A stretch of DNA of 32,000 nucleotides, from positions 270,001 through 302,000 of the forward strand of contig JAUQQN010000001.1 of assembly GCA_030549845.1 (NCBI GenBank). The letters run 5' to 3'. The stretch comes from Patescibacteria group bacterium (GTDB taxonomy: Bacteria > Patescibacteriota > Minisyncoccia > UBA6257 > HR35). The notes beneath the pieces were generated by a model. The model made no database searches, was not told where the DNA came from, and saw only the letters and a program-made list of their open reading frames with translations. Shown here piece by piece: positions 4,801 to 21,149 of this stretch. Position numbers and translations under genes: made by a program. Every line of letters starts with the position of its first letter. Within the stretch, counting starts at the first letter, position 1.

Positions 4801-4835
4801 ATTTTAAAAATTATATTATAATAAATTTACTGGGA

Positions 4836-4952
4836 ATGAATACGGTTAAAAAGAAAAAAAAGAAAACAGGATTTTTAGCAAGGTCAAGTTATAAAGCAGG
4901 GAGAAAAATTTTGCAGAGAAGAAGGAGAAAAGGTAGGAAAAGATTAGCTTAA
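4836..4952 (+). CDS. rpmH: 50S ribosomal protein L34 (38 aa). Not present in the supplied ORF track.
   Basis: Manual translation gives MNTVKKKKKKTGFLARSSYKAGRKILQRRRRKGRKRLA*. This matches the L34 pattern (..HGF.AR..T..GRK.L.RRR.KGRK.L). The stop TAA (4950-4952) overlaps the rnpA ATG as TAATG. The rpmH-rnpA-yidC order, divergent from dnaA, is canonical. Confidence 0.85.
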   Translation: MNTVKKKKKKTGFLARSSYKAGRKILQRRRRKGRKRLA

Positions 4953-5290
4953 TGCTTCCGAAAAAATATAAATTAAAGAAAATAGACTTTGAAAATATTT
5001 TTAAAGTGGCGAAAAAATTTAATAATGAATATTTTGTGGTTTTAAAAGTAAATAAATTAGAAAAAAAATTTGGAGTATTTCCAAGTTTAAAAGAATTTAA
5101 AAAGGCGGTAGAGAGAAATAAAATCAAAAGGAGGATATTTGAAATTATAAGATTAAATTTTGATAAAATACCTTTAGGGTGGTTTTTAATTTTTCCAAAA
5201 AAGAATTGTTTAAAATTAAACTTTGAAGAATTAAAGAAAAAATTGTTAGAAATAATTATTAACATAAAATCCACAAATTATTCACAATGA
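4952..5290 (+). CDS. rnpA: Ribonuclease P protein component
   Basis: 112 aa and basic, with the RNase P protein RNR motif (KAVERNKIKRRIFEIIR). It sits between rpmH and yidC. Confidence 0.85.
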   Translation: MLPKKYKLKKIDFENIFKVAKKFNNEYFVVLKVNKLEKKFGVFPSLKEFKKAVERNKIKRRIFEIIRLNFDKIPLGWFLIFPKKNCLKLNFEELKKKLLEIIINIKSTNYSQ

Positions 5291-5913
5291 AAGAAATTTT
5301 TTACGGAATTTTCGTTCATCCGCTTGTAGTTATTCTTTTAACTATTTATTTGTTTTTGAATGATTTTGGAATCACGATAATTTTAATGAGTCTTTTGTTA
5401 AAAATATTTTTAAGTCCACTTTCTTTTTTACAATATTTGGAAGAGAAGAAACTAAAAAAAATACGGGAAAGAGTTAATAAGGAAACTATAAATATAAAAG
5501 ATTTTATAAAAAAAGTTGAAATTATGAATAAAATTTACGAAGAAGAAAAATTCAGTCCATTTAAAAATATTTTGATTAACTTTTCTTTAATTCCATTTTA
5601 CTTAGGAGCAATTCTAGCAATTTATGAATTAGTTAAAACAATCCCAAACGCTTTATTTTTGAATTATGTAAATTTACTAAAACCGAATATTTATCTGGCT
5701 TTTATCACAACATTTTTTAATTTTTATTATGCTTATAACCAACCAGGAGAAAATAGGAAAATTATGTTTTTTATTTTTGGAGTGCTTTCAGTAATACTTT
5801 TTACTTTACCATCCTTTTTAATTTTATATATATTAACTTCGATTATTTTGAGTTTTTTAGAGAGAAAGATTTTCGATTGGTACTACGTAAAGTTTATTAT
5901 CAAATCTGTTTAA
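5287..5913 (+). CDS. yidC: Membrane protein insertase YidC/Oxa1 family (short form)
   Basis: Polytopic membrane protein whose first TM segment resembles the YidC core (GITIILMSLLLKIFLSPLSFLQ), followed by a basic loop. It has an ATGA overlap with rnpA, and the synteny is canonical. Confidence 0.75.
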   Translation: MKEIFYGIFVHPLVVILLTIYLFLNDFGITIILMSLLLKIFLSPLSFLQYLEEKKLKKIRERVNKETINIKDFIKKVEIMNKIYEEEKFSPFKNILINFSLIPFYLGAILAIYELVKTIPNALFLNYVNLLKPNIYLAFITTFFNFYYAYNQPGENRKIMFFIFGVLSVILFTLPSFLILYILTSIILSFLERKIFDWYYVKFIIKSV

Positions 5914-6936
5914 AAATATTACACCTAAAGGAGTTATAACAGGTTGTAAAATATCAAATTTTCCATCTAAATCAAAATACTTAAGTTCGTTTTTAATTGG
6001 ATCAAAAATTACTAATCTATCATTAAAGTTTTCTTTGTAATAATACCACCTTGTTAAATCAGTGATAGACTGATTTAAGGGAACGCCACAAACAAGCTTT
6101 GTTTTAAATGTACATTTTTCTTTTAATGTTCCAAAATTGAATTCTTTAAGTTTAATCCCTTTTGAGTTAATTAAATAACTTTTCCATTCTTTTTCTAATA
6201 AAGAAACAAAAATCAAGTCTTTTTTGTTAGATAATGCACTTAAATTAATGCCATTTTCTAATAAAATTGTTTTTTCTCCTCTTTTGTTAATAAGAATTAA
6301 TGGTGAAGAATATGTATATTTTAAGTTTTCATAAACTAAGATACCATTCTCAATTACATCAAACTCAGGGTTTAAAATATAAATATCTACAAAAGGTTCT
6401 AGAGATTTTTTAAAGGTTGCTAAATAAGAAAATTCATTTGTTAATACATAGATATATAAATCATCTCCATACCAAAATGTTTTTTTAGTGCTTCTTGGAA
6501 GTTTTTCTATTCTATCTTTTGTGGTATCTAATAAATAATAATCTTCATCTTTTTTAAAAATAATTTTCGTTTTTGAATTAGAAAAAGAGATATTTTTAAT
6601 ACCCTCTTTTTTATAAAATTCTTTATAAGTTTTATCTTCTATATTTATTTCTTTAATAGTTTTTGACTCTGGATCATAAGCATATATATAAGGATAATCT
6701 ATTTCAGGATATAATAAAATTTTTTCATAAAGAATATTAGGTTTTTTTACTTCTTTTTGTTCAATTCCTCCAACCGAAGGAGAAGGCTCTTCGATACTTT
6801 CTTCTATAGTTTTTTCTTCTGTTATTTTAATTTCCTCAGGTTGTTTTGGTTTCAATTCTTTATAAAAGTAAAAAATAAAGCTTATGAATAAGATCAAAAC
6901 TAAAACGAAGAAAATTTTTTTAACTGTACCTATCAT
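5857..6936 (-). CDS. Hypothetical N-terminally membrane-anchored protein, last gene of the T4SS-like operon
   Basis: A TM helix (IFFVLVLILFISFIFYFY) is followed by an acidic linker and a large Tyr/Lys/Asn-rich domain that looks beta-rich. The 4-nt overlap with the upstream gene implies co-translation. No family is recognised. Confidence 0.7.
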   Translation of the reverse strand: MIGTVKKIFFVLVLILFISFIFYFYKELKPKQPEEIKITEEKTIEESIEEPSPSVGGIEQKEVKKPNILYEKILLYPEIDYPYIYAYDPESKTIKEINIEDKTYKEFYKKEGIKNISFSNSKTKIIFKKDEDYYLLDTTKDRIEKLPRSTKKTFWYGDDLYIYVLTNEFSYLATFKKSLEPFVDIYILNPEFDVIENGILVYENLKYTYSSPLILINKRGEKTILLENGINLSALSNKKDLIFVSLLEKEWKSYLINSKGIKLKEFNFGTLKEKCTFKTKLVCGVPLNQSITDLTRWYYYKENFNDRLVIFDPIKNELKYFDLDGKFDILQPVITPLGVIFLNRFDNKLYVVPIENLSL

Positions 6937-7565
6937 TTTTTTCTTTTTATAAAATAAATTATAAGAACAAAAACCAAAATAGCCCCAATTGTTGCTAAAG
7001 TTATCAAAAAAATATTAGAGAAAATTTTAGAAGGCAAGGGAATTTCTTTTTCAGTAGTTTTTGTTACCACTTTAAATTGTGTGGTTATAGGAACTAACTC
7101 CTTTATTGGTTGAGAAAATGGATAATTTGGGTTTTTTGCTGTTTTACAATCTAAGGGACATAAATTTTCTTCTCCTGGTTCACATATATTATTTTCATTA
7201 CAAATTGTTAACCCTGATAAATCTAAATTTTCTTTTTGGTTATTTTTTGCATTGATTAGTTCTATTTTACTTAAATTTAAATAATTAGGAATTGTAATAA
7301 AATCAAAATAAGGTTCATTACTGGGAGAAAAATAAATTATATCAATAATCTGATTTTTAGTGTTATAAATTAAAAGCAAATAATCTTTGCCATTTCTATT
7401 TACAGTTTCATTACTGTTATTTGAATATTCTGCTCCTTTAAAATAATTGAATTTTATTTCATTATTTTCTTTAATAAAATAGATAGTTAAAAATTTAGGA
7501 AATTCTGTTTCTCCCGTTTCGCTTTCTTCAAGTTCTTCAGGTAAAATTGTTAATATTTTTTTCAT
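6933..7565 (-). CDS. Hypothetical protein with a C-terminal TM anchor and a 4-Cys motif
   Basis: The C-terminal hydrophobic helix is followed by KRKK (IFLITLATIGAILVFVLIIYFIKRKK). A Cys cluster CNENNICEPGEENLCPLDC is present. No obvious N-terminal signal peptide. It lies within the operon. Confidence 0.65.
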   Translation of the reverse strand: MKKILTILPEELEESETGETEFPKFLTIYFIKENNEIKFNYFKGAEYSNNSNETVNRNGKDYLLLIYNTKNQIIDIIYFSPSNEPYFDFITIPNYLNLSKIELINAKNNQKENLDLSGLTICNENNICEPGEENLCPLDCKTAKNPNYPFSQPIKELVPITTQFKVVTKTTEKEIPLPSKIFSNIFLITLATIGAILVFVLIIYFIKRKK

Positions 7566-7579
7566 AGATTTATTTTAAA

Positions 7580-8674
7580 TTACTTAAGGTTAACTTTACC
7601 AATTTTACAGACTGTTATATAAGAAGGTTTTATTGATGTGGCATTATTTAAATCTCCTTTACCGAAACCAGCAAATAGATCCAACCAAGCATCAGCTCCA
7701 TTTTTTAACCCACCACCTGTATCAGTAACTATCAAAATTTTACTGAAATTAGGATTACAAGAAATTTGAGTCCCATCTTTTTTATTGCACGCTAAAACCT
7801 TTAGGATATCAAAAGCATTAAAAACCATATCATTTCTATTATGAGCTACAGTTATAAGAGGAATTAATGGGCCATAACTTCCATAAATTTTCCCAGTAAA
7901 TGACTTTCCAACACTATCTGCTGTAGTTATAGCTTTGTTTTCATCTAAAACATCTTTGTTCTTAATTGATTCTTTTTGGGATGACATTGCTGCAGGACAA
8001 TTATGAGGAGGATTTCCTGTGACTTTAATCCAAGTCCATTTCCAACCATATCTACATTTATCTAATTCTTCCCCTGATTTTTTAGATTCATTTAAAATTT
8101 GTATCCCATCCAAGGCATTTAATACTTTCTTTGTTCCAGCAGATCCAAATAACCCTGTTCCTTGCAGGGTGACATCAGAAGAAAACTTATGCCAATTATA
8201 TGTATCTTCATAAAAAGGAATATAATAAGTTGTTAATCTAACCAAATAATTTTTAGATTTACATTCTCTTTGTTGTAATTGATTTATTTCTTCTTGCGGA
8301 ATTCCTGTAACAGATATGGTGTAATCTAAATAATTTATAGTAGTAGTGGTAACAGCAACATTTATTGATGGAAGTTGAATGTTAATTATTTTAAACATTA
8401 TTAATCTTGCATTAAATATTTCTGGGTTTATCCAATAAAGCAAAACACCAGAAGAAAAAATAACAATTAAGCCTATAATAGAATTTCTCATCTGTCTTTT
8501 GCCTTCCATTTTTATATCAGGCACAACACTTAATAAGTTCTTAAAAGCTCCTATAAAAAACATAATAAAAGCAATAACAACAGCTAAAGCTACTATTAAG
8601 TTATAAATAGCTTGAATACATCCTTGTATAGTAACACAACTTGAAGCAATAAACTGTTGTATATCTGGTATCAT
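7580..8674 (-). CDS. Fusion protein: VirB2/TrbC-like two-TM pilin-like hairpin plus an MltA/3D-domain-type lytic transglycosylase (functional VirB1/PrgK analogue)
   Basis: The N-terminus has two hydrophobic helices separated by a short basic loop (IYNLIVALAVVIAFIMFFIGAF ... GKRQMRNSIIGLIVIFSSGVLLYWI), as in TrbC/VirB2-type pilins. The C-terminus resembles MltA motifs: LTTYYIPFYED (cf. TGYYEP), VTLQGTG (cf. IQGSG) and VTDTGGGLKNGADAWLDLFAGFG (cf. the 3D-domain DTGGAIKG..DLF.G.G). These matches are from memory and were not computed. Confidence 0.6.
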   Translation of the reverse strand: MIPDIQQFIASSCVTIQGCIQAIYNLIVALAVVIAFIMFFIGAFKNLLSVVPDIKMEGKRQMRNSIIGLIVIFSSGVLLYWINPEIFNARLIMFKIINIQLPSINVAVTTTTINYLDYTISVTGIPQEEINQLQQRECKSKNYLVRLTTYYIPFYEDTYNWHKFSSDVTLQGTGLFGSAGTKKVLNALDGIQILNESKKSGEELDKCRYGWKWTWIKVTGNPPHNCPAAMSSQKESIKNKDVLDENKAITTADSVGKSFTGKIYGSYGPLIPLITVAHNRNDMVFNAFDILKVLACNKKDGTQISCNPNFSKILIVTDTGGGLKNGADAWLDLFAGFGKGDLNNATSIKPSYITVCKIGKVNLK

Positions 8675-9285
8675 TTTTCTATTTTTATTTGGTCTGAGCT
8701 AAATTCAATTGGATTATCTATATTTGTAACAATAACCTTTACTTCGCTTCCATTTTCGAGCCCTTCGGGATCAAATAAAAGGCTGTAATAAAATTTATTA
8801 AAAACATTCCAAGCAATTGATAAGTTATCTGAAGAAAAATTAAATGTCAAAGGAAAAAGTTTTTCATTTTTTTCGATTCTTCCAAAAGGCAAAACTACAT
8901 TAAGTTCTTCTAAGTACCTTACAATAGAAACAGCAGGCAAATTTTTTTGTTTAAAAACAAAACTATATTTCTTGTCAAAACTTAAATCATTTGAATAAAT
9001 TCTTACTTTTCCTGAAAGAAGTTTATTTTTTGATTCGAAGTGCAAAAGTGGTTTATGGGTCTCATACGTTGCTTGGCTTCCTTCAAAAAATAATACCCAT
9101 TCATAATTTAATAAATCAGGCTTATATTTAGAAAAATCTGCTTCAATTCCTATTAAATACTTATCTCCATTTTTCTGAAACGAAAAATAAGCAAAATCTT
9201 TTTGAGAAAAAACAAGGCTATAAGAAAAAAGCGAGAAAATAAAAATTATGAGTAAAATTTTAATAAATTGTGAATTAATTTTCAT
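8671..9285 (-). CDS. Hypothetical secreted/anchored protein (start trimmed to an internal Met)
   Basis: The ORF-track start at 9381 would overlap the upstream gene by 79 nt. The Met at 9285 gives a classic signal peptide or anchor (MKINSQFIKILLIIFIFSLFSYSLVFSQ). The mature part looks beta-rich. It has a 4-nt overlap with the downstream gene. Confidence 0.65.
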   Translation of the reverse strand: MKINSQFIKILLIIFIFSLFSYSLVFSQKDFAYFSFQKNGDKYLIGIEADFSKYKPDLLNYEWVLFFEGSQATYETHKPLLHFESKNKLLSGKVRIYSNDLSFDKKYSFVFKQKNLPAVSIVRYLEELNVVLPFGRIEKNEKLFPLTFNFSSDNLSIAWNVFNKFYYSLLFDPEGLENGSEVKVIVTNIDNPIEFSSDQIKIEK

Positions 9286-9302
9286 AAAATTATTATAAAA
9301 TA

Positions 9303-9842
9303 TCAAATGGTTTCTCCAATTACTTCTTCTTGTTGCTTTTTTACTTCTTTCTTTAATGACCTTAATCTTTTCACTCTCCAAAGCCTTCCTCTAGAAACTA
9401 GCATTGTTAATGTTTTTATTGGAGCAATTTCTATTAAGCTTCCTATTATTGGAATAAAACCAAAGAATTCTATCGCAACTAAGAAAACATAAACACCTCC
9501 TTCAATTTGAGAAAGGTATCCATTTTTAGTATAATAAAATATCAAATATAAAAACAGTAAGGCTCCAGGTATCTCAAAAATCAAAGGAATGATTCCTAAA
9601 ATACTTAAAGCTCCTGCACTTGCTAACCCTATTATACTAAATATAAATTCAAAAATATCTGCTGTTATTAATAAAATAAAGCTTAGATACCAAATCCAGC
9701 TTATATAATGAGGTTCTTCCTCTTCTTCAGTTGTCTCTTCAAATTTTTTTAATCTTCCTGATTTTTGTAAATAATCTTCTTTTTTCTCTTCGGTGTAATC
9801 TAATTTTTTAATTTCAGAATTTGTTTCAAACACTGCCTTCAT
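9303..9842 (-). CDS. Hypothetical polytopic membrane protein (about 4 TM) with an acidic N-terminal tail
   Basis: The acidic N-terminus (TTEEEEEPH) is followed by four hydrophobic segments and a basic C-terminal tail. It has an ATGA overlap with the stop of the virB4-like gene. Confidence 0.65.
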   Translation of the reverse strand: MKAVFETNSEIKKLDYTEEKKEDYLQKSGRLKKFEETTEEEEEPHYISWIWYLSFILLITADIFEFIFSIIGLASAGALSILGIIPLIFEIPGALLFLYLIFYYTKNGYLSQIEGGVYVFLVAIEFFGFIPIIGSLIEIAPIKTLTMLVSRGRLWRVKRLRSLKKEVKKQQEEVIGETI

Positions 9843-11635
9843 TGATTTTTCAAAGCTTCTTTTATTGCCATTAATTGCTCTAGGGAAGCTTTAATTATTT
9901 GATCTTCAGCATAAGATGCTAAAACATACAAAGGAATTCTTTTAAGACCAGCAATTAAAATTCCTCTTCCTCTTTCAGCTTGTATTAAAAATCTTTTTTC
10001 GCCTTCAGATAAGGCAAATACTTGGCCTACTGTATCAATTGTTGTTGGTGATTGTTTCATTAAAAATGTAAGTGCAGAGTTTGTAATTATAGGCTTACCA
10101 TAAGGAGAGCTCAAAAAATCATCTATATCTTGAGTTATTGTGGTTATTCCTAAAAGATATTTCCTACCTCTTTTTATTGCATTAAGCAAAAAATTAGCAC
10201 CTGATTCATTTTTCATTATCCACCATGCTTCATCTATTATTAAAATTCTTTTCTTTCTTTCTCTTCTTATTTTATTCATTAAATCATTCAAAACAATATA
10301 CATACCAATAGGTCTTAACTCTTCTACTAAATCTTTAAACCCAAAAACAACTATTCTCTTTTTAAGATCAACATTTGTTGGTTGATTAATAAAACCACTA
10401 AAACTACCCTGAGTAAATGGATATAATTTTTCAGCTATAGACTTACCTCCTTCTATACTTAAAAGAACTTTTTCTAAGTCATTTAATGTAGGGAAAACTT
10501 CTATTTTTCCAAAATCTGTATCAGGTAAAATATTAAAGGAAGCATACGTTTGGCTTATTGCTCTATCTAATATAGTAAGTTCTTCTGCGTTAAATTTCTC
10601 ACCTGCTATAACTTCTAAAAGTCCAATTATATCACTAACTTTTTCTTTGTATACATCTTCAGGATTTTCTCCCTCAAGTAAAGGAGGTAAATCAAGAGGG
10701 TTAATTTTGTGCTCTGATCTTAAAGAAATTGGTATAAAAGATCCTCCATAAACTTCAGCTATTGATTGATATTCATTTTCTGGGTCTAACACAATGACAT
10801 CTTGCCCCATCATTAGATTTCTCATAATTTCAATTTTTGCAGTATAACTTTTACCTGATCCTGATCTTGCTAAAATTACCATATGAGCATTCTCAAAAGC
10901 AAATCTATCGAGAAGAACCAGGGAGTTGTCTTGCAAATTAATACCCATCAAAATTCCTTTTTCCATAGACAATTCTGATGAGATAAATGGGAAAAATGAA
11001 CTTGCGGCAGATGAGTTCATTACATATTCTATTTGAAGTCTATTAGAATTAAGAGGTAGTGTTGAAAAGAAAGCATCTTCTTGTTCAAATATAATTGGTT
11101 TTGCAACAATTAAATTACTTTCTAAAATTTTTATAATTCTTTTTTCTTTTAATAATAATTCATCTTTATCTTCAGAAAATATAGTAAGATATAAAGCAAC
11201 ATTAAATATCTTTTCTCTTCCTTGTACTATAGCATCCCTTAATTCCTCTATATCATTGTAGGCTGTTTCAAGTTGTGGGTCTCTAGGCAAGCCTTTTTCT
11301 TCAATTTCTATTAATTGACTTTCTACTCTTAAAAGCTGTTTTTGTAATTGCTTAAGAATAACTCCAGGATCTCTAGGAACAAAATAAATCGAAAGATTAA
11401 AAGGCTCTTCTAATGCTAAAAGATTTTCTAACCAACCAGCAAACAAAAATCTTGGATAAGTAATTATAGCTATAACCTTTCCATAAACTTCTCCTATTTG
11501 AAAATCAGATACCCCAAATAAAGCTCCTGGAGGGGCTATTATATTTTTTATTTTCTCAAAACCTTTTGCCTCCTCGATTTTAACGATAGGAATCCCTTTA
11601 TTTGTTTGTTGGAAAAATGGTAATTTGAATGCCAT
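9839..11635 (-). CDS. virB4: VirB4/TrbE/TraC-family type IV secretion ATPase, C-terminal 598-aa portion including the motor domain
   Basis: Contains Walker A (ILARSGSGKSYTAK), Walker B (RILIIDEAWWIM) and a downstream TQ..D motif (GITTITQDIDDF). The N-terminal stretch (ITYPRFLFAGWLENLL ... LSIYFVPRD ... FEQEDAFFSTLPLN) is typical of monoderm VirB4 homologues. Confidence 0.88.
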   Translation of the reverse strand: MAFKLPFFQQTNKGIPIVKIEEAKGFEKIKNIIAPPGALFGVSDFQIGEVYGKVIAIITYPRFLFAGWLENLLALEEPFNLSIYFVPRDPGVILKQLQKQLLRVESQLIEIEEKGLPRDPQLETAYNDIEELRDAIVQGREKIFNVALYLTIFSEDKDELLLKEKRIIKILESNLIVAKPIIFEQEDAFFSTLPLNSNRLQIEYVMNSSAASSFFPFISSELSMEKGILMGINLQDNSLVLLDRFAFENAHMVILARSGSGKSYTAKIEIMRNLMMGQDVIVLDPENEYQSIAEVYGGSFIPISLRSEHKINPLDLPPLLEGENPEDVYKEKVSDIIGLLEVIAGEKFNAEELTILDRAISQTYASFNILPDTDFGKIEVFPTLNDLEKVLLSIEGGKSIAEKLYPFTQGSFSGFINQPTNVDLKKRIVVFGFKDLVEELRPIGMYIVLNDLMNKIRRERKKRILIIDEAWWIMKNESGANFLLNAIKRGRKYLLGITTITQDIDDFLSSPYGKPIITNSALTFLMKQSPTTIDTVGQVFALSEGEKRFLIQAERGRGILIAGLKRIPLYVLASYAEDQIIKASLEQLMAIKEALKNQ

Positions 11636-12264
11636 TATTCCTCTAATGACTCTATTAATTCTTCAAACAATTTTATTGGAGCAAGCCCCCATCTTAAGCT
11701 AGGATTGTACATCTCATACAAAAGCTGCAAAAGTTCATAATTATTTAATCTTATTGGTTGAAGTCCAATAGCAGAAAGTTTTTCTGTTATATAAATAACC
11801 CTAGTCTCTAATTGCTCTAATTTTGTATAAAATTCCTCTTCTTTAATTTTTGTTTTTTTACCAAATTTTTTTATTTCAATTACTTCTCCCTCATATGGTA
11901 CAACAATATAAAATATTTTTTTCATTATTTTGTGGGTTTCTACATAGCTTTGTATAAATTTAATGTATTCTTCTAGTTGTAATTTAATCAATGGTTCATC
12001 TTCTACTTCAAGTCTTTCTTTTAAGTAATTTAAATAACCCTCTATATACGCATACCTTGAAACAACTAATATTTGTAAATTAAAATCTAGCCCATCTAGA
12101 AATTCTTTAAAAGCACCAACTACTGCTTCCTTTTCTTGTTCTGAAAGTAATGTAAAATTAATTCCCGGAACAGCTAAAATAGCTCTTAAACTTCCATCTT
12201 CTAATATAAGAGTGTCATTTTTTATATCTTTTACTTGTATTAAAGATGCAGTTGTTTTTACCAT
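11635..12264 (-). CDS. VirB4 N-terminal domain-like protein (209 aa), apparently a split-off N-terminus of the VirB4 ATPase
   Basis: The sequence (IQVKDIKNDTLILEDGSLRAILAVPGINFTLLSEQEKEAVVGAFKEFLDGLDFNLQILVVSR) resembles the extreme N-terminus of ~800-aa Firmicutes-type VirB4 proteins. Its stop overlaps the next ATG as TAATG. The two parts sum to 209 + 598 = 807 aa. Confidence 0.6.
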   Translation of the reverse strand: MVKTTASLIQVKDIKNDTLILEDGSLRAILAVPGINFTLLSEQEKEAVVGAFKEFLDGLDFNLQILVVSRYAYIEGYLNYLKERLEVEDEPLIKLQLEEYIKFIQSYVETHKIMKKIFYIVVPYEGEVIEIKKFGKKTKIKEEEFYTKLEQLETRVIYITEKLSAIGLQPIRLNNYELLQLLYEMYNPSLRWGLAPIKLFEELIESLEE

Positions 12265-12785
12265 CTTCTTTTAGGAAATTTTGGAATAGGGAAATTAATA
12301 TAAGGATTAAAAGGATTATAACCTCTTTCTATAGCTTTTTTTACATATACAGCTAAAGATTTATTTACTTCTTTTTCTTCTTTTGGTTTTTCATAACTTA
12401 CAAGAGGGAGCTCTTTTTGTGTTTCAGTTTCTGTTATTTCTTCTAATTCAATATATTTTTCTAAGAGAGGAGATTTTATATATTGAGTAGTAATTTTAAC
12501 TTCTTCTTTCCATATATATTTTTTAGGAGATAATAGAATCATGATAAGTTTTGGAAGAAAGGCATAAATATATTTATTATTTATTTTCAACCAACCTATA
12601 ATAAAAGCTGCTAAAACAATAATTCCAGAAAGAAATACTGCAATAAAGCCACCAAATAATTTAAATGTAGCAAAGGATAACAAAAATGCCCCAAAACTTA
12701 TAAAAAGCTGAGGAAATGTAAAAGAAATCATTCCTAAACGTAATTTATCTTCTATTGTTATATATTGTGGTACACTAAATCTCAT
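12258..12785 (-). CDS. PrgI-family / VirB3-like small membrane protein
   Basis: The N-terminus (MRFSVPQYITIEDKLRLGMISFTFPQLF) is followed by two TM helices, the pattern of PrgI-family proteins. It sits directly upstream of virB4, as prgI-prgJ and virB3-virB4 do. Confidence 0.6.
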   Translation of the reverse strand: MRFSVPQYITIEDKLRLGMISFTFPQLFISFGAFLLSFATFKLFGGFIAVFLSGIIVLAAFIIGWLKINNKYIYAFLPKLIMILLSPKKYIWKEEVKITTQYIKSPLLEKYIELEEITETETQKELPLVSYEKPKEEKEVNKSLAVYVKKAIERGYNPFNPYINFPIPKFPKRRW

Positions 12786-12793
12786 TAAAATAA

Positions 12794-13432
12794 TTATAAA
12801 TTAGAAAGATCTAAAACTTCTCCCTCTTTTTTTTCTTCTTTTGGTTTTTTGATTACCACAATTTTAGAAGATATATCCTCAGTTGGCTTAGGAGGCTCCC
12901 AAGAAATCGTTTGTTTTATATCAATTGTAGATTTAGGAACTTCTGTCTTTATTTGTTGGAGTTTAGATAAATCTATGGGAGTAGTTGGCTTAGGAACCTC
13001 GATTGCTTCTTTTGTTTTTACTACTTTTTGTAAATTTAGAATTTTTTGTGGTGGAACTTCTTTGGCTTTCTGTATTAGATCAATCACTTCTTTTGGCACT
13101 TCTTTTTTGATTTTTTGAGTCTTTTCTTTCTCTTCTTTCCATAATGGTTCTACAAGTGGCAGGAATCTTGCTTTTATATGATATTCTAATTGTTTAGCTT
13201 TTTCTGTATCATAATTTAATCTATTTCTAATAATTTCCGTTAAGCTTTCTTTTTCTAAATCAAATCTTTTTATTGCTAAATCTTGCAATAAATAAATAAA
13301 TTCAACCTCATATTCATCACTAATTTCAAATTTCTTTTTATATTCTTCAAAAAAAGAATAAAAATCATCAGAATATAAAAATTCTTTTACTCTATCTGGT
13401 GCTTCTGTATATGCATCTATAAATGATTTCAT
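12794..13432 (-). CDS. Hypothetical soluble protein with degenerate EVPK-type repeats in its C-terminal half
   Basis: No TM segment or signal peptide. The N-terminal domain is acidic and helical. The C-terminal half carries about five degenerate repeats (KEVPKEVIDLIQ / KEVPPQKILNLQ / EVPKPTTPIDLSKLQ / EVPKSTIDIKQ / EPPKPTEDISS). It lies within the operon. Confidence 0.7.
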   Translation of the reverse strand: MKSFIDAYTEAPDRVKEFLYSDDFYSFFEEYKKKFEISDEYEVEFIYLLQDLAIKRFDLEKESLTEIIRNRLNYDTEKAKQLEYHIKARFLPLVEPLWKEEKEKTQKIKKEVPKEVIDLIQKAKEVPPQKILNLQKVVKTKEAIEVPKPTTPIDLSKLQQIKTEVPKSTIDIKQTISWEPPKPTEDISSKIVVIKKPKEEKKEGEVLDLSNL

Positions 13433-13456
13433 TTTTAAATATTATAAAAATAAATT

Positions 13457-15955
13457 TTATGTAGAACTTGCACCACCACCCCCTCCAGTAGATTGGGCTG
13501 ATTCAGATTTTTCTTTTTCTCTCGCCTCTTCTAGTGCCCGAATTCTTTCCTCAATTTCTTCTCTTTCTCTTCTAGCTTCTGCCCTATAAGGTCTTTCAAA
13601 AATCCCAGCAATCTTTTCAAGCAGAGGAGTTAATTCTTCGGGATTTGAAAGTTGGACACCTTGTTTTTGTATTAATTGTTGTAATTGTACGATTTCTTGT
13701 TGTAGGTCATGTATTTCTTCAAGTCTTTGCTGTAATTCGGTTTTTCTTTGGTTCAAGTTAATTTTTTCATCTTCACTTGCTCCTTGTATTTCCCCATCTA
13801 TGGCTTGTATTTCTTGGTTTAATGAATTAATTTCTCTACCTAGTTCTACTTCAATACCTTTTAATATCTGCTGTAGGTCTATTTTCCCAATAAGTTTTTG
13901 AGGATCTTTTGCCCAATCTTTTACTGTCTTATGTGATATTTCTCCTTGAGAATAAGAACCCATTAGTTGTCTTCTAATCTCTTCTTCTAATTTTGGTTGA
14001 AGCGTATCTGGTATTTTTTGGCCTCCAATCACTAACCTCTGAGCTATTTGTGGTCCTAGCTCTCTTATACTTCTTGCAGCTGGAGAAGCTCTAATAATTC
14101 CTTGAAGTCGTTGTGGACCTATATTTCTTTCGACATCTTGATAAATACCTAAATCATGTAAATACTTTAAATTCTTTGGATTCCAGAATATATCATTTAA
14201 ATCTCTACCAGAAGTAAACATAAAATAATTGGATAATAATGTTTTAACTTCAGCCTCATCTGCTCCAGCTTTTCTAAGTAAAGTTCCTATTGTTTCTAAT
14301 CCAACCTCGCGATGACTAATAATTTCTGGAAGGGTTGATAATACCTCAGCTCGTTTTTCTCTTCCTTCAGTAATTTTTGTTAAAATACATCTTAATTTCT
14401 TACCACATAATGCTTTACGAGTACTTAAATCTAATTTATCCCAATCCAAAATACTAGCAATTTTAAATAGTTCATCTGCACTTAGTTTTGAATTCATTAC
14501 TTTAGCTAATTCTTCTTTGAATGGTCCTCTATATCTTTCAAATATTCCAGCAATCTCTTCAGGGCTTTTACCTTCCATGTGGTCACTGAAAATAGCTTCA
14601 GCTTCTTTTTTAACTTTTTCCTTTGTTGGTTTTTCTAATTTTTCACCTACTCCTTTGGTCCATAACCCTAAACTTCTAATGAATCCAACCCTACTTTTTT
14701 CTAAAGCTTTTCCTATAGTAGAAATTCCTCCTCCTATTTTTGATATAGCTGGTCTTACTGTCCACATTCCTACTCCTGCTGCAGCAGCACCAGCCAATCT
14801 CCAACCTTTCAATGCCAATCCATAAGTATAATTTGCAAAAACACCTCCTAAACTTAAAGAAACTTTCATTACAATATAGAAATAAAGAACAAGGAAAACA
14901 AATTTAGTAGAGACAGCAAAGAAAATACTTAAAGTAGTTTTTTCACTTTCTTCTAGTCCTGCTATAGGTTCTGCTTCTAATGAAGGTTTCATTAAATTTT
15001 GTAATTTCTCTTCATTAAATGCACCAGTTATGCCTTCTGTTTTTGTTGTTGCAACTAAAGCTACTCCTATTAAAATTAAGACAATTAAAATCAAAACATT
15101 GACTGTCCAATTTAGAAACCATTGCCACCAAGTATTCCAATATTTTTCATATCCAGGTGTTGCATATGCTATAGCAGCTAAAGGAAGTAAGCCTGCTAAA
15201 AATCCAATAATAAAGTATCTTCCAATAAATATTCCCACAAAAGACCACAAAGTAAGAGAAAATATAAGAGAAAGAACTATACCTACTAAATTAGCTACTA
15301 TATTTAATGCTCTTCTTAAAGCTGCTGCTTGATCTGGAGTTAGATCAGTTTGATATTTAGTAGCATTTTCAATCATTCCTTTTAATTGTTCTGTTATAAA
15401 ACCTGGAGGTACAGCATTAAATATTGCATAAATCAATGTACCTAATTTTGAAGAGTTATAATTTTCAGTCATTAAATTTGCAGAAAGCAAAATACTTCTT
15501 TGTATAAAATTGATTGTTCCAAAAAATACTTTTGCTAAAAGAAACGAAAAGTTTATTAAAAATGCTATAAGTATTACACCGAATAAAATCCTTCTCGCCT
15601 GGTCTTCTTTATTTAAGATCCAATTAATTCCTGAATATAATGCTAAAAATACTAAAATTACATAAGATAGATTTTTGAAGAATTCCCATAAAAATGATGC
15701 AAGCCCTCCTTCTTCAAATGGATTTAAAACGCTGAATATGTCTATAATAATTCTTGCTAGTCTTGCGAAGATATTAAAAAGAAAAATCACTCCGGTTAAA
15801 ACAATATAAGATACATAATCTATTATTCCAAAAACAAGCGCAGGAATTTTAGCCCAGAAATAATATCCTAATAAGCCTAATCCCAAAGCTCCAAGTAAAC
15901 TTAGCCCTATAACTACCCAAACCACTGCTTTATTTTTTAATTTTTGATTTTTCAT
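13457..15955 (-). CDS. VirB6/TrbL/PrgH-like polytopic membrane protein with a ~430-aa hydrophilic coiled-coil C-terminal extension
   Basis: The first ~400 aa contain roughly 8 hydrophobic helices with Trp-rich loops (YWNTWWQWFLNW). The remainder is charged and helical with heptad-like Gln/Glu/Leu stretches, and it ends in STGGGGGASST. Its position upstream of the PrgI-like and VirB4 genes mirrors prgH-prgI-prgJ. Confidence 0.6.
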   Translation of the reverse strand: MKNQKLKNKAVVWVVIGLSLLGALGLGLLGYYFWAKIPALVFGIIDYVSYIVLTGVIFLFNIFARLARIIIDIFSVLNPFEEGGLASFLWEFFKNLSYVILVFLALYSGINWILNKEDQARRILFGVILIAFLINFSFLLAKVFFGTINFIQRSILLSANLMTENYNSSKLGTLIYAIFNAVPPGFITEQLKGMIENATKYQTDLTPDQAAALRRALNIVANLVGIVLSLIFSLTLWSFVGIFIGRYFIIGFLAGLLPLAAIAYATPGYEKYWNTWWQWFLNWTVNVLILIVLILIGVALVATTKTEGITGAFNEEKLQNLMKPSLEAEPIAGLEESEKTTLSIFFAVSTKFVFLVLYFYIVMKVSLSLGGVFANYTYGLALKGWRLAGAAAAGVGMWTVRPAISKIGGGISTIGKALEKSRVGFIRSLGLWTKGVGEKLEKPTKEKVKKEAEAIFSDHMEGKSPEEIAGIFERYRGPFKEELAKVMNSKLSADELFKIASILDWDKLDLSTRKALCGKKLRCILTKITEGREKRAEVLSTLPEIISHREVGLETIGTLLRKAGADEAEVKTLLSNYFMFTSGRDLNDIFWNPKNLKYLHDLGIYQDVERNIGPQRLQGIIRASPAARSIRELGPQIAQRLVIGGQKIPDTLQPKLEEEIRRQLMGSYSQGEISHKTVKDWAKDPQKLIGKIDLQQILKGIEVELGREINSLNQEIQAIDGEIQGASEDEKINLNQRKTELQQRLEEIHDLQQEIVQLQQLIQKQGVQLSNPEELTPLLEKIAGIFERPYRAEARREREEIEERIRALEEAREKEKSESAQSTGGGGGASST

Positions 15956-18900
15956 TTAATATAAATTTTTTTTGGCTTAAATATATTAATTATCTCAAAA
16001 ATGTTTGCTAAAAATCCTACTCCTATATTGAAAATTCTTTTTATTAAAGAGACCCTTTGAGTTTTTTCAGGTAAAGATTGTGATGTAGATTCTTCAGCAG
16101 GTAATTCCTCTTCCTGTTGTTGAATTAATTTATTATTTATTTCCTCTTCAATTTTATCAATTAAAGAATTATATTCTTCGCATAGATTATTAATTTCTTC
16201 AATTTTTTCATTTATTCGATCCAAGTTTTGTTCAATATTAGTTTGTATGCTTTGAATTTCTTCTGGCTTAAATTGACTTAGATAATCTTCCCAAATTTTA
16301 TCTGTTTCTTTTTGCATTTCTTGTATTAATTGATCTTTTTGTTGCTGTAAATTATTTAATTCTTGTAATTTAGTCCAAAAATCTTGATTTTGTTGTGTAG
16401 AGTTTCTATATAATTCTATTACTTCTTTAAAGGCCTTGCTTGTTTTTAAAATAAGCTCTAAAGACTCATCCATTCTTAAATATATAGCTTCTCCTTTTTC
16501 AGCACTCCATTTATTTGGTACCTTAGAAATGGCAAATTCCCACTCTAAAATATTAGTTCTTTTTGCATATTCCATGGTATTTGAAGCATAATTCTCCAAA
16601 GCATTGAAGTAATCATAAAGTTTATTTAAGTCATTTTGGATTGCTTCAGGAGTTGTAGAGGGTGGATTTGTTATTAAATTTGTTAAGAAATTATAAGATG
16701 CCATAACTAGGTTTTCTTGTTGAATACCACTTTTTGATGCTGGTGAATTGTATAAAGAATAAAATATATGTATAAGATCATGAACAATAAAGTATATTTT
16801 ATACTCAGGTTGTTGATAACCATATTTCCAATCTGTGCCATCATGAAAGTCTGTATCTAGCTGGCTATAATGGAATCTTCTTCTGAAAAATTCATAATCT
16901 TTATCCTTCATACAATTTGTAATGTGGGTAGGATAAAAATCATTAAAGAATGATAATTTTTCTCTTTTTCCTAAAGAAGGAGCACAATCTGTGTATTTTG
17001 TGCCTTCACCTACTCGATATATCTTTGTACCAGTGGCTACTGCAATGTAATCTCTTGGGAAATAATTATCATCTAAATCCAAAGGCGGTCGTTCTAGATC
17101 AATATACCTTTCAAAAAATATTGCTATTTTATTTGAATATAAATTACTAGCTCCGTATAAGCTTTGAGATATTTTTGAATTTATTTCTCTAATAAGATTA
17201 TCAATTTGAGATTTAATTGAATTTATTTGTTCATCCAATTTATTTATTTTTTCGGTATAACTAGCAGTTATAGAATCAATTTGATTTAAAATATTTTGGT
17301 TTATTAATTTTTCTAATGTAGTTGTGTTTGAAGATATTGAATTGGAAATCTCATTTAGTTCATTTTCTAAATTTTTGAAGTTATAAACTATTTCATTTAA
17401 TCTTTCTATACTTTCTGTAGTTTGCTCTTCTTTTAATTTTTGAATTATATTATCAATTTCATTTTTTGACCTTTCGGAAGTAGAAGTATAATCTTGAATA
17501 TTATTCATAAGTTGATTTATAGCCTTCACTATATTAATTACTCTTGAATTTAAACCAATAAGATTTCCTTTTTCTATTTCAGTAATTTTTCTTAATTGTG
17601 ATTCCATAGCAGATTTACATACTTGTTGCGATCCTGGAATTGATACAACCTGAAATTCATTGCATACTACATTTACTCTTTCAGGTCGATAGGCATTTTT
17701 AATATCAGCCATATAAGAAGAGTTACTTGAAGACCTAGCCTCCAAGCTTGCAAAACCTTTATCAATTATCTTAAACAATTTACTAGAAAGCCAACTTCTT
17801 ATAAAAGCTACTAAAACATTTGTTGCTCGCTCTTGTGATTTAAATATTTCTAAGGGGGATGTTAATATTTGCTCTTTTAACTTTTCATAATCTGCTGGGG
17901 ATGATAGGGTTGGCCCAGGTATTAAACAATTAGGATCTTCACCAGGAATATCTTTTTGAGCCTCTATCTTTTGTTTAATTTCTTGTAATTTTTTATCCAA
18001 CTTATCAATTTGAGTTTTATCTCCTTTTAGCATAGCATCTTCTAATTGTCTTGAAACTTCTTCATATTCTACATCTGCCCAAGTTTTTAAACATTGAGTT
18101 TTTGGTTTAAAGGTTAAACCACCGGGTTGTTGAATTTGAGTTTGAAATTGTTCATGTTCTTTATTTAAAGCTTCAATCAATGCTGCTGCATATCTATCTT
18201 GTATAAGCAAACAATTTGAAATTTTAGCAGCGTCTAAAATAGGTTTATTATAGTCAAAAAATATAGTTTGAATAGCACTAAATTCGGAATCAGGATAAAT
18301 TTGTGCTAGTAATTTTTTGAAATTAAGTTTATTTTTTATAGTTCCAAAAATATTAGCTAGCATTTTAAAACTAGGCTTTTCTATCTTAGCTACATAAGTT
18401 TCTGGTTTTTTTAAGCTATAAAGATTTTCTTCTTGTAAAGAAGCAGGTTGAATAAGTTCTAAATTTTTATATACTTGCTGCTCCTCGTATTTCTCGCATA
18501 TTCTTTTAGAGGCAATATTAAATTCTTGATATTTATAGAAAGCATTCAAAAACCCCATTAATTTAATTGAATTTTCTGCATTTCTTGCAACCTCATAACT
18601 CAAATCTTTTGTTGAATATAAAAGATTAATTAAACAACCTTTTAATTCTTCTGGGATACAGGGCTGCTCTTTATATTTATTAAATATTCTATTAAATACT
18701 CTTTGATGTTCTAAAAAAATCTTAAAATTTCTATAAGCTTCTATATCTTTTATATAATTTTTCAAAATTCTTCCATATATGAATTCATTAAGTTTATTAA
18801 TTAATTGAAATTTAAAATATTGAAGGGCATCCTGTAAAGCAAGATGAATAGAAGTTTTAATACTTGCTAAAACATTTTTAGTTGCTTCTTTTATAGAACT

Positions 18901-19260
18901 TGCTATAGCTTTATTTGTTTCTGGAGCTCCTACTGGAACTTTTCCAATTAGTGAACCTAAAATAGATTCTACTGCTTCAATTATTAAACTGGATAAGAAA
19001 TCTCTAATCAAGCTTTCAAAAAACCCAGGGCCTTTTGGAAGATTCCCGGCAAAAGCGTCTAATTCTGTTATATAATCAGTTGTTGATGTTGAAAATTCTT
19101 CGGTTTCTTCAATTTCAATAGGTTTTAAATTGCATTGTAATTTATAAGAAGATAAATCAATTTTTTCAGGGAAATCATCTGATTGAGAAAATATAAATCT
19201 TACTGGCAAGGCATTGAATAAAATAACAAAGATTATAAAAATTGATAAAAATTTTTTCAT
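15952..19260 (-). CDS. Large (1102 aa) secreted coiled-coil protein of unknown family, with a C-terminal hydrophobic segment
   Basis: It has a signal peptide (MKKFLSIFIIFVILFNALPVRFIFSQS), long Asn/Ile/Glu/Lys-rich heptad regions and scattered Cys residues. The C-terminal hydrophobic/amphipathic stretch is IFNIGVGFLANIFEIINIF. It shares 4-nt overlaps with both neighbours. Confidence 0.75.
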   Translation of the reverse strand: MKKFLSIFIIFVILFNALPVRFIFSQSDDFPEKIDLSSYKLQCNLKPIEIEETEEFSTSTTDYITELDAFAGNLPKGPGFFESLIRDFLSSLIIEAVESILGSLIGKVPVGAPETNKAIASSIKEATKNVLASIKTSIHLALQDALQYFKFQLINKLNEFIYGRILKNYIKDIEAYRNFKIFLEHQRVFNRIFNKYKEQPCIPEELKGCLINLLYSTKDLSYEVARNAENSIKLMGFLNAFYKYQEFNIASKRICEKYEEQQVYKNLELIQPASLQEENLYSLKKPETYVAKIEKPSFKMLANIFGTIKNKLNFKKLLAQIYPDSEFSAIQTIFFDYNKPILDAAKISNCLLIQDRYAAALIEALNKEHEQFQTQIQQPGGLTFKPKTQCLKTWADVEYEEVSRQLEDAMLKGDKTQIDKLDKKLQEIKQKIEAQKDIPGEDPNCLIPGPTLSSPADYEKLKEQILTSPLEIFKSQERATNVLVAFIRSWLSSKLFKIIDKGFASLEARSSSNSSYMADIKNAYRPERVNVVCNEFQVVSIPGSQQVCKSAMESQLRKITEIEKGNLIGLNSRVINIVKAINQLMNNIQDYTSTSERSKNEIDNIIQKLKEEQTTESIERLNEIVYNFKNLENELNEISNSISSNTTTLEKLINQNILNQIDSITASYTEKINKLDEQINSIKSQIDNLIREINSKISQSLYGASNLYSNKIAIFFERYIDLERPPLDLDDNYFPRDYIAVATGTKIYRVGEGTKYTDCAPSLGKREKLSFFNDFYPTHITNCMKDKDYEFFRRRFHYSQLDTDFHDGTDWKYGYQQPEYKIYFIVHDLIHIFYSLYNSPASKSGIQQENLVMASYNFLTNLITNPPSTTPEAIQNDLNKLYDYFNALENYASNTMEYAKRTNILEWEFAISKVPNKWSAEKGEAIYLRMDESLELILKTSKAFKEVIELYRNSTQQNQDFWTKLQELNNLQQQKDQLIQEMQKETDKIWEDYLSQFKPEEIQSIQTNIEQNLDRINEKIEEINNLCEEYNSLIDKIEEEINNKLIQQQEEELPAEESTSQSLPEKTQRVSLIKRIFNIGVGFLANIFEIINIFKPKKIYIK

Positions 19261-19916
19261 AATTTTTCTAAAATTTTTTCTTGTAAATTTGCTAAATCGT
19301 TAAGAATTAATAATAACGAAGTTCCTTTTTCTGAATCTTCTGTATTAGAAAGTTCAACCAGAGCCTCTCCTAACATCCCTAGTATTATTACTTCTAATTT
19401 GTGAAATTCATAATAACTTTTAGGTACCTCTATTTTAGAAATATTATTTGCCACACTTAAAATATATTGTCCATTGGCCCTTAAATTGTTTTTATCATTA
19501 AAATCTAAATTAACATATTTTAAATTTTCTATTTCTTTTTTAAGTTCCTCAGCATATACTCTTTCATCCTTTAGGTTGTTTATTTTTATATTTTTTACAT
19601 AATTGTCTATTTTTTTAATTAATTTTGCCTCAAGTTCAATTCTTTTTCCTCCTGTACTTATCATCTCTGCTTTTAAATAATCCAAGGCTGCTTTTTCTAA
19701 ATATAAATCCTTACCTTCTAATACTTGTAATAAATCTTTAAACTCAGGATATTTGTTAAGTTCAGATTTGTAAAAATTAACGTCCTTTTTATAATTTGTT
19801 TTCTTGCTTTGGGTTTTAGAACCTGATATTAAAGAAATAAACCCTAAAATAAAAATTATGAATAGAAAGAATAAGATGATAAGCAATAATAATTTTTTGT
19901 TTTTTAAAATTTTCAT
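19257..19916 (-). CDS. Hypothetical N-terminally anchored protein, first gene of the T4SS-like operon
   Basis: A TM anchor (LLLLIILFFLFIIFILGFISLISG) is followed by a helical, Lys/Glu-rich ectodomain. The ATG lies 5 nt downstream of the tRNA-Thr 3' end. Confidence 0.7.
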   Translation of the reverse strand: MKILKNKKLLLLIILFFLFIIFILGFISLISGSKTQSKKTNYKKDVNFYKSELNKYPEFKDLLQVLEGKDLYLEKAALDYLKAEMISTGGKRIELEAKLIKKIDNYVKNIKINNLKDERVYAEELKKEIENLKYVNLDFNDKNNLRANGQYILSVANNISKIEVPKSYYEFHKLEVIILGMLGEALVELSNTEDSEKGTSLLLILNDLANLQEKILEKL

Positions 19917-19921
19917 AGTTG

Positions 19922-19993
19922 AGCCAGTAGCGGGATTCGAACCCGCAACCTACCGCTTACGAAGCGGTCGCTCTACCATTGAGCTATACTGGC
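19922..19993 (-). tRNA. tRNA-Thr (anticodon CGU)
   Basis: The reverse complement folds as a cloverleaf: GCCAGTA-TA-GCTC-AATGGTA-GAGC-G-ACCGC-TTCGTAA-GCGGT-AGGTT-GCGGG-TTCGAAT-CCCGC-TACTGGC-T. The anticodon loop TT-CGT-AA gives CGU. No CCA is encoded. Confidence 0.9.
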
Positions 19994-21120: not shown

Positions 21121-21149
21121 TTAATTTTTTATAATAATTAAATTATAAA

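Follow-up and report, generated by a model that had tools for sequence, protein, structure and literature searches.

We analysed a 32,000-nt stretch of DNA from a Patescibacteria group bacterium (contig JAUQQN010000001.1, positions 270,001 to 302,000; hereafter the window), in which a feature at positions 5857-19916 of the minus strand had been read from its letters as a twelve-gene operon resembling a type IV secretion system (T4SS) and repurposed from conjugation (the original prediction). The list of open reading frames (ORFs) agreed with the layout described there: twelve co-directional minus-strand ORFs, numbered here g1 to g12 in the order of transcription (Table 1), follow one another with overlaps of 4, 4, 4, 1, 7, 4 and 4 nt; the other junctions are gaps, 14, 17, 8 and 24 nt long, and all values lie within the predicted ranges of 1-7 nt for overlaps and at most 24 nt for gaps. 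The 17-nt gap between g8 and g9 holds only after trimming of a 236-aa ORF with a TTG start, a form of g9 that would run 79 nt into the gene upstream; we set g9 at about 204 aa because its orthologues measure 201-214 aa and the shorter form opens with a signal-peptide-like hydrophobic segment, both of which agree with the secreted protein of about 205 aa proposed earlier. The cluster is flanked on one side by PBP1, dnaN, dnaA, rpmH (4836-4952), rnpA and yidC, and on the other by tRNA-Thr(CGU), ftsB/DivIC, yraN/UPF0102, LeuRS, tRNA-Ile, Hsp20, PrsW, a class-I tRNA synthetase, tRNA-Val and others. Annotation of the window thus confirmed the predicted setting among core genes (yidC; tRNA-Thr/ftsB/yraN), about 1 kb from the rpmH-dnaA region, the distances from the end of the cluster being about 0.9 kb to rpmH and about 1.06 kb to the dnaA start. 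The GC fraction stays between 0.22 and 0.34 throughout the window and shows no jump where the cluster begins or ends, in line with the claim that the cluster has the composition of its surroundings.

Table 1. Genes of the T4SS-like cluster, in order of transcription, and the adjacent tRNA gene (positions in the window; TM, transmembrane; AF2, AlphaFold2).
Feature	Product and architecture	Positions	Strand	Basis
tRNA-Thr(CGU)		19921-19993	-	ARAGORN and sequence
g1	219 aa; N-terminal TM anchor and helical ectodomain	19257-19916	-	hydropathy
g2	1102 aa; giant envelope/surface protein	15952-19260	-	hydropathy, sub-threshold coiled-coil matches
g3	832 aa; VirB6-like polytopic membrane protein	13457-15955	-	orthologue profile against PDB
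g4	212 aa; soluble EVPK-repeat protein	12794-13432	-	hydropathy
g5	175 aa; PrgI/VirB3-like small membrane protein	12258-12785	-	Pfam PrgI via orthologues
g6	209 aa; TrsD-like, detached VirB4 N-terminal domain	11635-12264	-	NF045975, NF041427
g7	598 aa; VirB4 ATPase (MPF_FATA/CD1110 type)	9839-11635	-	NF045971, Pfam, PDB
g8	179 aa; acidic N-terminus and four hydrophobic segments	9303-9842	-	hydropathy
g9	about 204 aa; signal peptide and undefined ectodomain	8671-9285	-	start corrected from the 236-aa TTG ORF (8671-9381)
g10	364 aa; VirB2-like TM hairpin (residues 15-82) and probable MltA/3D domain (about 140-364)	7580-8674	-	PF18895 and indirect evidence
g11	210 aa; Cys-rich motif (CNENNICEPGEENLCPLDC), C-terminal TM anchor, no signal peptide	6933-7565	-	hydropathy
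g12	359 aa; TM helix, disordered linker (35-59) and beta-propeller ectodomain	5857-6936	-	AF2, Foldseek

The identification of g7 as VirB4 is secure at the level of sequence. The protein matched the NCBIfam model NF045971 (VirB4-like conjugal transfer ATPase, CD1110 family) at 1.7e-109 and 367 bits, over the cut-off of 325, and gave Pfam matches to the TraG P-loop (3.5e-25) and CagE_TrbE_VirB (1.4e-8); its sole relative in the PDB was the C-domain of the Thermoanaerobacter VirB4 (4ag5, 4.8e-35), and its Walker A (ARSGSGKS) and Walker B (ILIIDE) motifs are both intact. A match to T4SS-DNA_transf (0.0062) reflects P-loop cross-similarity and does not mark a coupling protein, while similarity to CedB reached 1.9e-17 and 63 bits against a cut-off of 700, accompanied by a weak CedD match. 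Immediately upstream, g6 aligned at 2.3e-11 to positions 102-278 of NF045975, the 894-position model for the VirB4 of Mycoplasma integrative and conjugative elements (ICEs; Mbov_0397 family), and at 3.4e-7 to the TrsD/TraD model NF041427, under that model's cut-off. Ten of 24 g6 orthologues matched the N-terminal part of TraC_F_IV (best 2.3e-5), and the g6 profile gave no significant match in the PDB. Among the relatives, which we defined as the best 80 VirB4-encoding loci in 185,579 species genomes (labelled L002 and so on), a TrsD-like gene adjoins virB4 in 72 of 80. Judged by these alignments, g6 is the VirB4 N-domain encoded as a separate polypeptide. The PrgI/VirB3-like assignment of g5, weak for the window protein itself (1.4e-3 against Pfam PrgI, below the gathering score), is carried by its orthologue family, 22 of whose 24 members matched PrgI with a best value of 1.5e-10. 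Furthermore, g5 (residues 27-103), g6 and g7 are colinear with NF045975 at positions 27-107, 102-278 and 292-893, respectively; because they share this single model, the three proteins would together correspond to one fused Mollicutes VirB3-VirB4 polypeptide. In Mollicutes that polypeptide is encoded on a mobile ICE, whereas here it is divided over three chromosomal genes, and the score falls below the equivalog cut-off of the model (276 vs 590 bits). The VirB4 call of the original prediction, in halves of 209 and 598 aa, and its PrgI/VirB3-like call were both borne out, the latter through the orthologues.

Many hydrophobic segments lie within residues 1-370 of g3 and are followed by a hydrophilic, coiled-coil C-terminal extension of about 450 aa, the layout of an 'extended VirB6'. 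As a single sequence, g3 gave no Pfam or NCBIfam match beyond coiled-coil noise. The best PDB match of a profile built from 18 orthologues was TrwI, the VirB6 of R388 (7o3v_F, 3.2e-4), over the TM region, with the next match at 0.057; homologues are present in 37 of the 80 loci. This support for a VirB6-like protein, predicted as VirB6/TrbL-like, is modest but specific. The membrane motor of a monoderm T4SS is complete in g5, g6, g7 and g3. Moreover, the order VirB6-like, VirB3-like, TrsD, VirB4 and probable wall hydrolase is that of conjugative MPF_FATA systems (CTn2/Tn916-type CD1110; PrgH-PrgI-PrgJ-PrgK of pCF10; TrsC-TrsD-TrsE of pGO1/pIP501), so that the parallel drawn earlier with prgH-prgI-prgJ-prgK holds, with TrsD interposed.

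The position of the wall hydrolase is taken by g10, a fusion of two parts. Its hairpin matched PF18895 at 1.8e-8 and 34.8 bits against a gathering score of 26.6, as the predicted pilin-like hairpin would suggest, and this match covers the N-terminal 82 residues of the fusion, not a free pilin. For the C-terminal domain, the window protein matched nothing in Pfam, NCBIfam or the PDB, 3D and MltA models included. Its positional orthologue in L008 (10644-11666) matched both PF18895 and Pfam 3D (7.5e-7, 29.7 bits, gathering score 23.8) and aligns to g10 through the motifs TTYYxP, QGTG and TDxGGG...DLF. When the g10 family was compared with E. coli MltA by hhalign, exactly the 3D region was aligned, at an E-value of 0.0044 and a probability of just 7.8%; g10 residues D318 and D332, invariant in the family, align to D317 and D328 of MltA, which we take to be the mature D297 and the catalytic D308. 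The g10 motifs TTYYxP, QGTG, TDTGGG and WLDLF likewise parallel TGYYTP, VQGSG, LDVGG and FDIY of MltA. Pfam 3D was matched by one of eight g10 family members, at 0.025, and two of the three 3D aspartates are conserved in g10, the first being replaced (VAHN vs VASD). g10 differs from MltA/3D enzymes in a Cys-rich insert of about 100 aa and in its anchor, a VirB2-like hairpin in place of a lipid or signal peptide. The structural route to the C-terminal fold was unusable because the AF2 model (8 sequences) reached a predicted local distance difference test score (pLDDT) of 51 and Foldseek returned nothing from the PDB at E <= 1e-3. The family profile gave only a chance TM-hairpin match in the PDB, and an exhaustive HMMER search of 1.84 billion representatives with the C-terminal profile returned five matches, all in the same narrow family, with no bridge to known families. 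A Smith-Waterman comparison of the single-sequence g10 C-terminus with E. coli MltA was not significant (z = 1.1), so what links g10 to MltA is the hhalign result together with the motifs and the orthologue in L008. The domain is a probable, not proven, wall hydrolase of the MltA/3D type (double-psi beta-barrel), and g10 is a candidate functional equivalent of VirB1. The MltA/3D-type domain of the original prediction therefore stands on indirect evidence, and a direct match of g10 itself to a 3D or MltA model was not obtained.

Other proteins with the PF18895 hairpin carry different enzyme domains: Peptidase_C39_2 or Peptidase_M15_4 in P0011, P0012 and P0013, and 3D in L008. Because the homologues differ in this way, the hairpin behaves as an anchor for swappable wall-hydrolase modules, and counts of 'VirB2-like pilins' in the neighbourhood of Patescibacteria virB4 may include some hairpin-anchored wall hydrolases. 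A bolder suggestion, which we consider doubtful, is that in this Paceibacteria lineage the VirB2-like hairpin serves as a T4SS-docking carrier of interchangeable wall enzymes, not as a pilus subunit, and forms with g2 and g12 a host-wall-breaching device on a conjugation motor. If this were true, the machine would end outwardly in a peptidoglycan-cutting enzyme, acting at the contact site on its own wall or on that of the host, and published pilin counts near virB4 would include enzyme fusions. A hairpin-anchored hydrolase may also explain the apparent scarcity of VirB1 homologues.

The six remaining proteins besides g12 are lineage-specific and are either soluble or of the envelope. The giant g2 opens with a signal peptide, has a coiled coil in its middle part (about residues 555-700) and a further hydrophobic segment towards the C-terminus, and gave sub-threshold coiled-coil-type matches only against NCBIfam and Pfam; its orthologues, 25-44% identical, always lie directly upstream of the VirB6-like gene, and with a ratio of non-synonymous to synonymous substitution rates (dN/dS) of about 0.41 this fast-evolving protein is a candidate host-contact component. 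Orthologues of g1 are confined to L002-L006 at 31-43% identity, and no family was recognised for it with Pfam, NCBIfam or a profile search of the PDB; it is a lineage-specific accessory protein. In g4, which lacks a hydrophobic segment, degenerate EVPK...IDL repeats occupy the C-terminal half; the gene is kept between the VirB6-like and PrgI-like genes, has orthologues in nine loci and gave no family in Pfam or NCBIfam. The match of g8 to DUF4112 was weak (4e-4, under the gathering score), and relatives carry a protein of 168-182 aa at its position. No family was recognised for g9, whose PDB profile search gave sub-threshold immunoglobulin-like matches only, or in Pfam and NCBIfam for g11, whose orthologues occur only in L002, L005, L006 and L007. 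The earlier count of at least six components outside any family is matched by g1, g2, g4, g8, g9 and g11, and the earlier topology labels agreed with the hydropathy scan: one TM or signal segment at the N-terminus of each of the 219-, 1102-, 204- and 359-aa proteins, a hairpin in the 364-aa protein, a C-terminal anchor only in the tail-anchored, Cys-motif protein of 210 aa, and several hydrophobic segments in the 179-aa protein, consistent with the four TM segments proposed for it.

At the distal end of the cluster, g12 is by its structural model a membrane-anchored beta-propeller, which gives a fold to what had been described as an anchored beta-rich protein. The AF2 model (28 sequences) reached a pLDDT of 86.7 and a predicted template-modelling score (pTM) of 0.77, and Foldseek returned 700 matches at E <= 1e-3 (best 1.1e-7), of which those listed were all beta-propellers (lmo1340, Cdc20/Cdh1, BamB, Drp35). 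Searches of Pfam and NCBIfam and of the PDB by profile yielded no sequence family. The gene is kept beside yidC in nine loci; the 3' ends of yidC (+) and g12 (-) overlap convergently by 57 nt (5857-5913), with a similar arrangement in L006, L008, L011 and L014.

All of the 80 best VirB4 loci are in Patescibacteria-type metagenome-assembled genomes (MAGs), mostly of Paceibacteria/Parcubacteria/Minisyncoccia, at 43-89% identity. The arrangement yraN-ftsB-tRNA-Thr, twelve cluster genes, yidC-rnpA-dnaA-dnaN-PBP1 is complete in L002, L005 and L006 and partial on the shorter contigs L003, L007 and L008, across VirB4 identities from 82% down to 64%, and in L002-L006, L009 and L011 the cluster is immediately preceded by tRNA-Thr. 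The cluster is not sporadic: the yidC/tRNA-Thr locus, whose recurrence in relatives had been proposed as a check, carries it in every sufficiently long related contig. In loci with 44-48% VirB4 identity (Giovannonibacteria and others), TrsD-VirB4 lies 2-7 kb from dnaA-dnaN-PBP1 and the genes downstream of virB4 vary in number. All twelve ORFs are intact in relatives. Estimated by the method of Nei and Gojobori (NG86), with dS saturated and the ratios therefore rough, dN/dS was 0.07-0.13 for VirB4 and TrsD (0.07-0.12 and 0.10-0.13, respectively), 0.12 for dnaA and 0.24-0.57 for the accessory membrane and secreted genes; the T4SS core is as slow as dnaA, and the exposed accessory proteins are 3-5 times faster. 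The fixed locus and this dN/dS pattern point to an old, vertically inherited, functional machine with fast-evolving exposed parts, which are natural candidates for determinants of host specificity. In NCBI, a protein identical to g7 (MEM4648335.1) is labelled 'MAG: ATP-binding protein [Candidatus Pacearchaeota archaeon]' and a close homologue of g3 (832 aa) is labelled as from a Nitrososphaerota archaeon. The archaeal label looks like a misassignment (Pacearchaeota vs Pacebacteria), since the window carries bacterial dnaA, dnaN, rpmH, rnpA, yidC, ftsB and a class-A PBP and the relatives are all Paceibacteria MAGs.

Searches of the window ORFs of at least 80 aa gave no match to a relaxase, a VirD4/TcpA coupling protein, VirB11, an integrase or a partition protein, as the original prediction had held, and all window ORFs above 400 aa were accounted for. 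No relaxase or coupling protein was found in the syntenic 10-kb flanks of relatives either. These features recall systems already described in the phylum. Transposon sequencing (Tn-seq) by Wang et al. (2023, Cell) found the T4SS encoded by SEML1_0006-0019 to be essential for epibiotic growth of Southlakia epibionticum; it resembles Gram-positive conjugative T4SSs, has pilins and has no recognisable relaxase or coupling protein (PMC10633639). In a survey of 3,035 genomes, Quinonero-Coronel et al. (2025, Microb Genom) found VirB4 in 2,417, where it makes up one monophyletic group within MPF_FATA; TrsD was the most abundant associated component, and PrgI/VirB3, VirB6 and PF18895 pilins lay near virB4. 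Relaxases occurred in only 103 of the 3,035 Patescibacteria genomes, VirD4-like genes lay far from virB4 in nearly all, so that the earlier suggestion of VirB4 as sole ATPase reaches beyond what a 32-kb window can show, and in Paceibacteria and Microgenomatia dnaA, dnaN, rnpA and rpmH adjoin virB4, for which a gene-dosage benefit was proposed (PMC12102498). A 2025 review gives the Patescibacteria systems a place of their own within the T4SS superfamily (PMC12857230). The cluster shares with this clade an MPF_FATA VirB4 with a separate TrsD, the PrgI/VirB3-like and VirB6-like proteins, a PF18895 hairpin near virB4, the lack of a nearby relaxase or type IV coupling protein (T4CP) and a chromosomal place beside dnaA, dnaN, rnpA and rpmH, the Paceibacteria pattern. 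It differs in having no free pilin array, only a PF18895 hairpin fused to a hydrolase-like domain, and in six lineage-specific accessory proteins and a beta-propeller that are not described in the text of PMC12102498. Very probably the cluster is a chromosomal, vertically inherited, host-directed T4SS (channel or tube) of Paceibacteria, belonging to the Patescibacteria branch of MPF_FATA, uncoupled from DNA-processing genes and fixed beside dnaA. This agrees with the proposed T4SS-derived apparatus repurposed from conjugation, but that idea is already published.

By analogy with T4SS biology and the work on Saccharibacteria, from which we infer its steps, such a machine might operate as follows. 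A VirB4 hexamer, its missing N-domain supplied in trans by TrsD, would dock on PrgI/VirB6 and power assembly and transport; the hairpin-anchored 3D/MltA-like hydrolase g10 would open peptidoglycan at the machine in the role of VirB1; and the accessory proteins that are secreted or anchored (g1, g2, g9, g11 and g12) would make up the extracellular structure in contact with the host. Such a machine would move macromolecules across the epibiont-host interface, with effector export and import of host material both possible, and serve host-dependent growth, not conjugation. Several points weigh against this interpretation. The essentiality data come from another class (Saccharimonadia), not Paceibacteria; the negative result for relaxase and T4CP covers the 32-kb window, and distant copies elsewhere in the genome are possible; the VirB6 call rests on E = 3.2e-4 and the hydrolase call on transitive evidence. 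In addition, no role can be assigned to six of the proteins, and some genes, such as that for the beta-propeller, may be neighbours rather than T4SS parts; nor is a free-standing pilin gene present in the cluster, so that a pilus or tube is not assured.

An ICE, or the decaying remnant of one, that had integrated at the tRNA-Thr 3' end is a reading to which we give scarcely any credence, although the cluster starts 4 nt past the tRNA 3' end, a classic ICE target, and the best VirB4 model is that of a conjugative-element family, CD1110. The linked relaxase, T4CP, oriT and integrase of conjugative MPF_FATA elements and ICEs were not found in the window, and in place of a variable location the cluster holds a fixed, vertically inherited chromosomal locus. 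Conjugative MPF_FATA systems also differ in their hydrolases, PrgK and TraG having SLT and CHAP domains in place of a 3D/MltA-type domain on a VirB2-like hairpin; and no VirB8-like protein (PrgL) was identified by sequence among the cluster proteins, nor a PrgB-type adhesin detected in the cluster. A contiguous relaxase, coupling protein and integrase with attachment (att) repeats, named in the original prediction as the marks of an ordinary ICE, were likewise not found in the window: no second copy of the tRNA-Thr 3' end exists anywhere in it, and flanking direct repeats were only AT-rich chance matches. We reject an ICE because these att-repeat and direct-repeat searches were empty; the GC content is uniform, the junctions with the tRNA and with yidC are shared with genomes down to 64% VirB4 identity, and the ORFs are all intact and under purifying selection. 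The tRNA 3' end is 4 nt from the ATG of g1, with the end of ftsB 23 nt upstream of the tRNA, and the spacing from tRNA to first gene is a similar 3-6 nt in L002, L003 and L005. Such tight spacing suggests co-transcription of tRNA and operon; the tRNA-Thr is probably co-transcribed with the cluster and not an integration site.

Two further alternatives retain the machine and change its cargo or direction. One, possible but in our judgement the less probable course, differs from the host-directed T4SS favoured above in direction only and makes the same apparatus an importer of host RNA, nucleotides or other cytoplasmic macromolecules. Patescibacteria lack nucleotide synthesis, and the T4SS has been proposed as an uptake route (PMC11665869); in a 2026 preprint, tubular structures of a cultivated Minisyncoccota, possibly T4SS pili, penetrate the host envelope and enter the host, whose RNA is taken up, but the uptake mechanism is left unresolved there (bioRxiv 10.64898/2026.06.21.733656). 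The tubular structures also speak for the host-directed system favoured above. VirB4-family ATPases drive import in the archaeal Ced system, to whose CedB g7 is distantly similar, yet no T4SS is known to import RNA, and Pfam and NCBIfam searches found no nuclease, RNA-binding or transporter gene in the cluster. The other, a competence or DNA-uptake T4SS like ComB of H. pylori or archaeal Ced, was among the roles proposed earlier, and we regard it as highly improbable. Like those systems, the cluster would use a VirB4-family ATPase without a relaxase for a role other than conjugative export; T4SS loci of the ABY1 class sit with comF, recG and radA (PMC12102498), and g7 has its weak CedB and CedD matches. 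However, 63 bits is far under the CedB cut-off, Ced uses CedA/A1/A2, and ComB, which works in a diderm, needs VirB7-10 homologues, none of which was matched here in Pfam or NCBIfam. Com genes were not found in the window or the syntenic relatives, and in S. epibionticum competence needs type IV pili and ComEC: deletion of comEC stops transformation and so ends competence but not growth or viability, whereas the T4SS is essential (PMC12857230).

Each element of the conclusion that the system is relaxase-less, origin-proximal, repurposed and host-directed is already in print in papers of 2023-2025, and novelty is accordingly low; this is a typical Paceibacteria instance. Details that we did not find in the literature consulted are modest: the fusion of a pilin hairpin with a probable hydrolase and its module swapping, the colinearity of PrgI/TrsD/VirB4 with the fused Mycoplasma VirB3-VirB4, the conserved terminal beta-propeller and the near-zero spacing to tRNA-Thr. 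The T4SS of the ultrasmall Patescibacteria (CPR bacteria) is important as the first T4SS reported to be essential for its own bearer and is near-universal in a lineage estimated at about a quarter of the domain Bacteria. As an example from Paceibacteria the window is clean and complete and is backed by deep synteny, but it does not change existing knowledge; its practical value is that of a well-annotated reference locus, including the three-way PrgI/TrsD/VirB4 split.

Some observations concern the placement of the genes. The label 'origin-proximal' rests only on the convention of using dnaA/rpmH as markers; a scan of the window for DnaA boxes gave matches no more numerous than chance, so the position of oriC is not fixed from the window. 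Promoter and terminator scans gave counts at or below shuffle expectation and were uninformative because the DNA is AT-rich. The 14-kb T4SS operon lies on the strand opposite rpmH-rnpA-yidC, an orientation kept in relatives; with an origin on the dnaA side, it would be head-on to replication, which is odd given the proposed gene-dosage benefit of a place near the origin. Spacing along yraN-ftsB-tRNA-T4SS implies a single long transcript, in which 3' processing of the tRNA would leave g1 almost leaderless. Elsewhere, dnaA and rpmH are divergent and 35 nt apart (4801-4835), with almost no room for two promoters and none for oriC, and a 164-aa ORF and leuS are divergent and 29 nt apart (21121-21149), with hardly space for two promoters. 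A 142-aa ORF at 4846-5274 (-), antisense to rpmH and rnpA, of low complexity rich in F, L, N and S and with no family match, is almost certainly a spurious product of AT-rich DNA. Finally, the tRNA-Ile at 23915-23986 (-) has the anticodon UAU, as does one at L009:2088-2160. Most bacteria decode AUA by a lysidine-modified CAU tRNA, so that a gene for a tRNA-Ile with UAU is unusual; a very AT-rich, reduced genome would be a fitting place for one.

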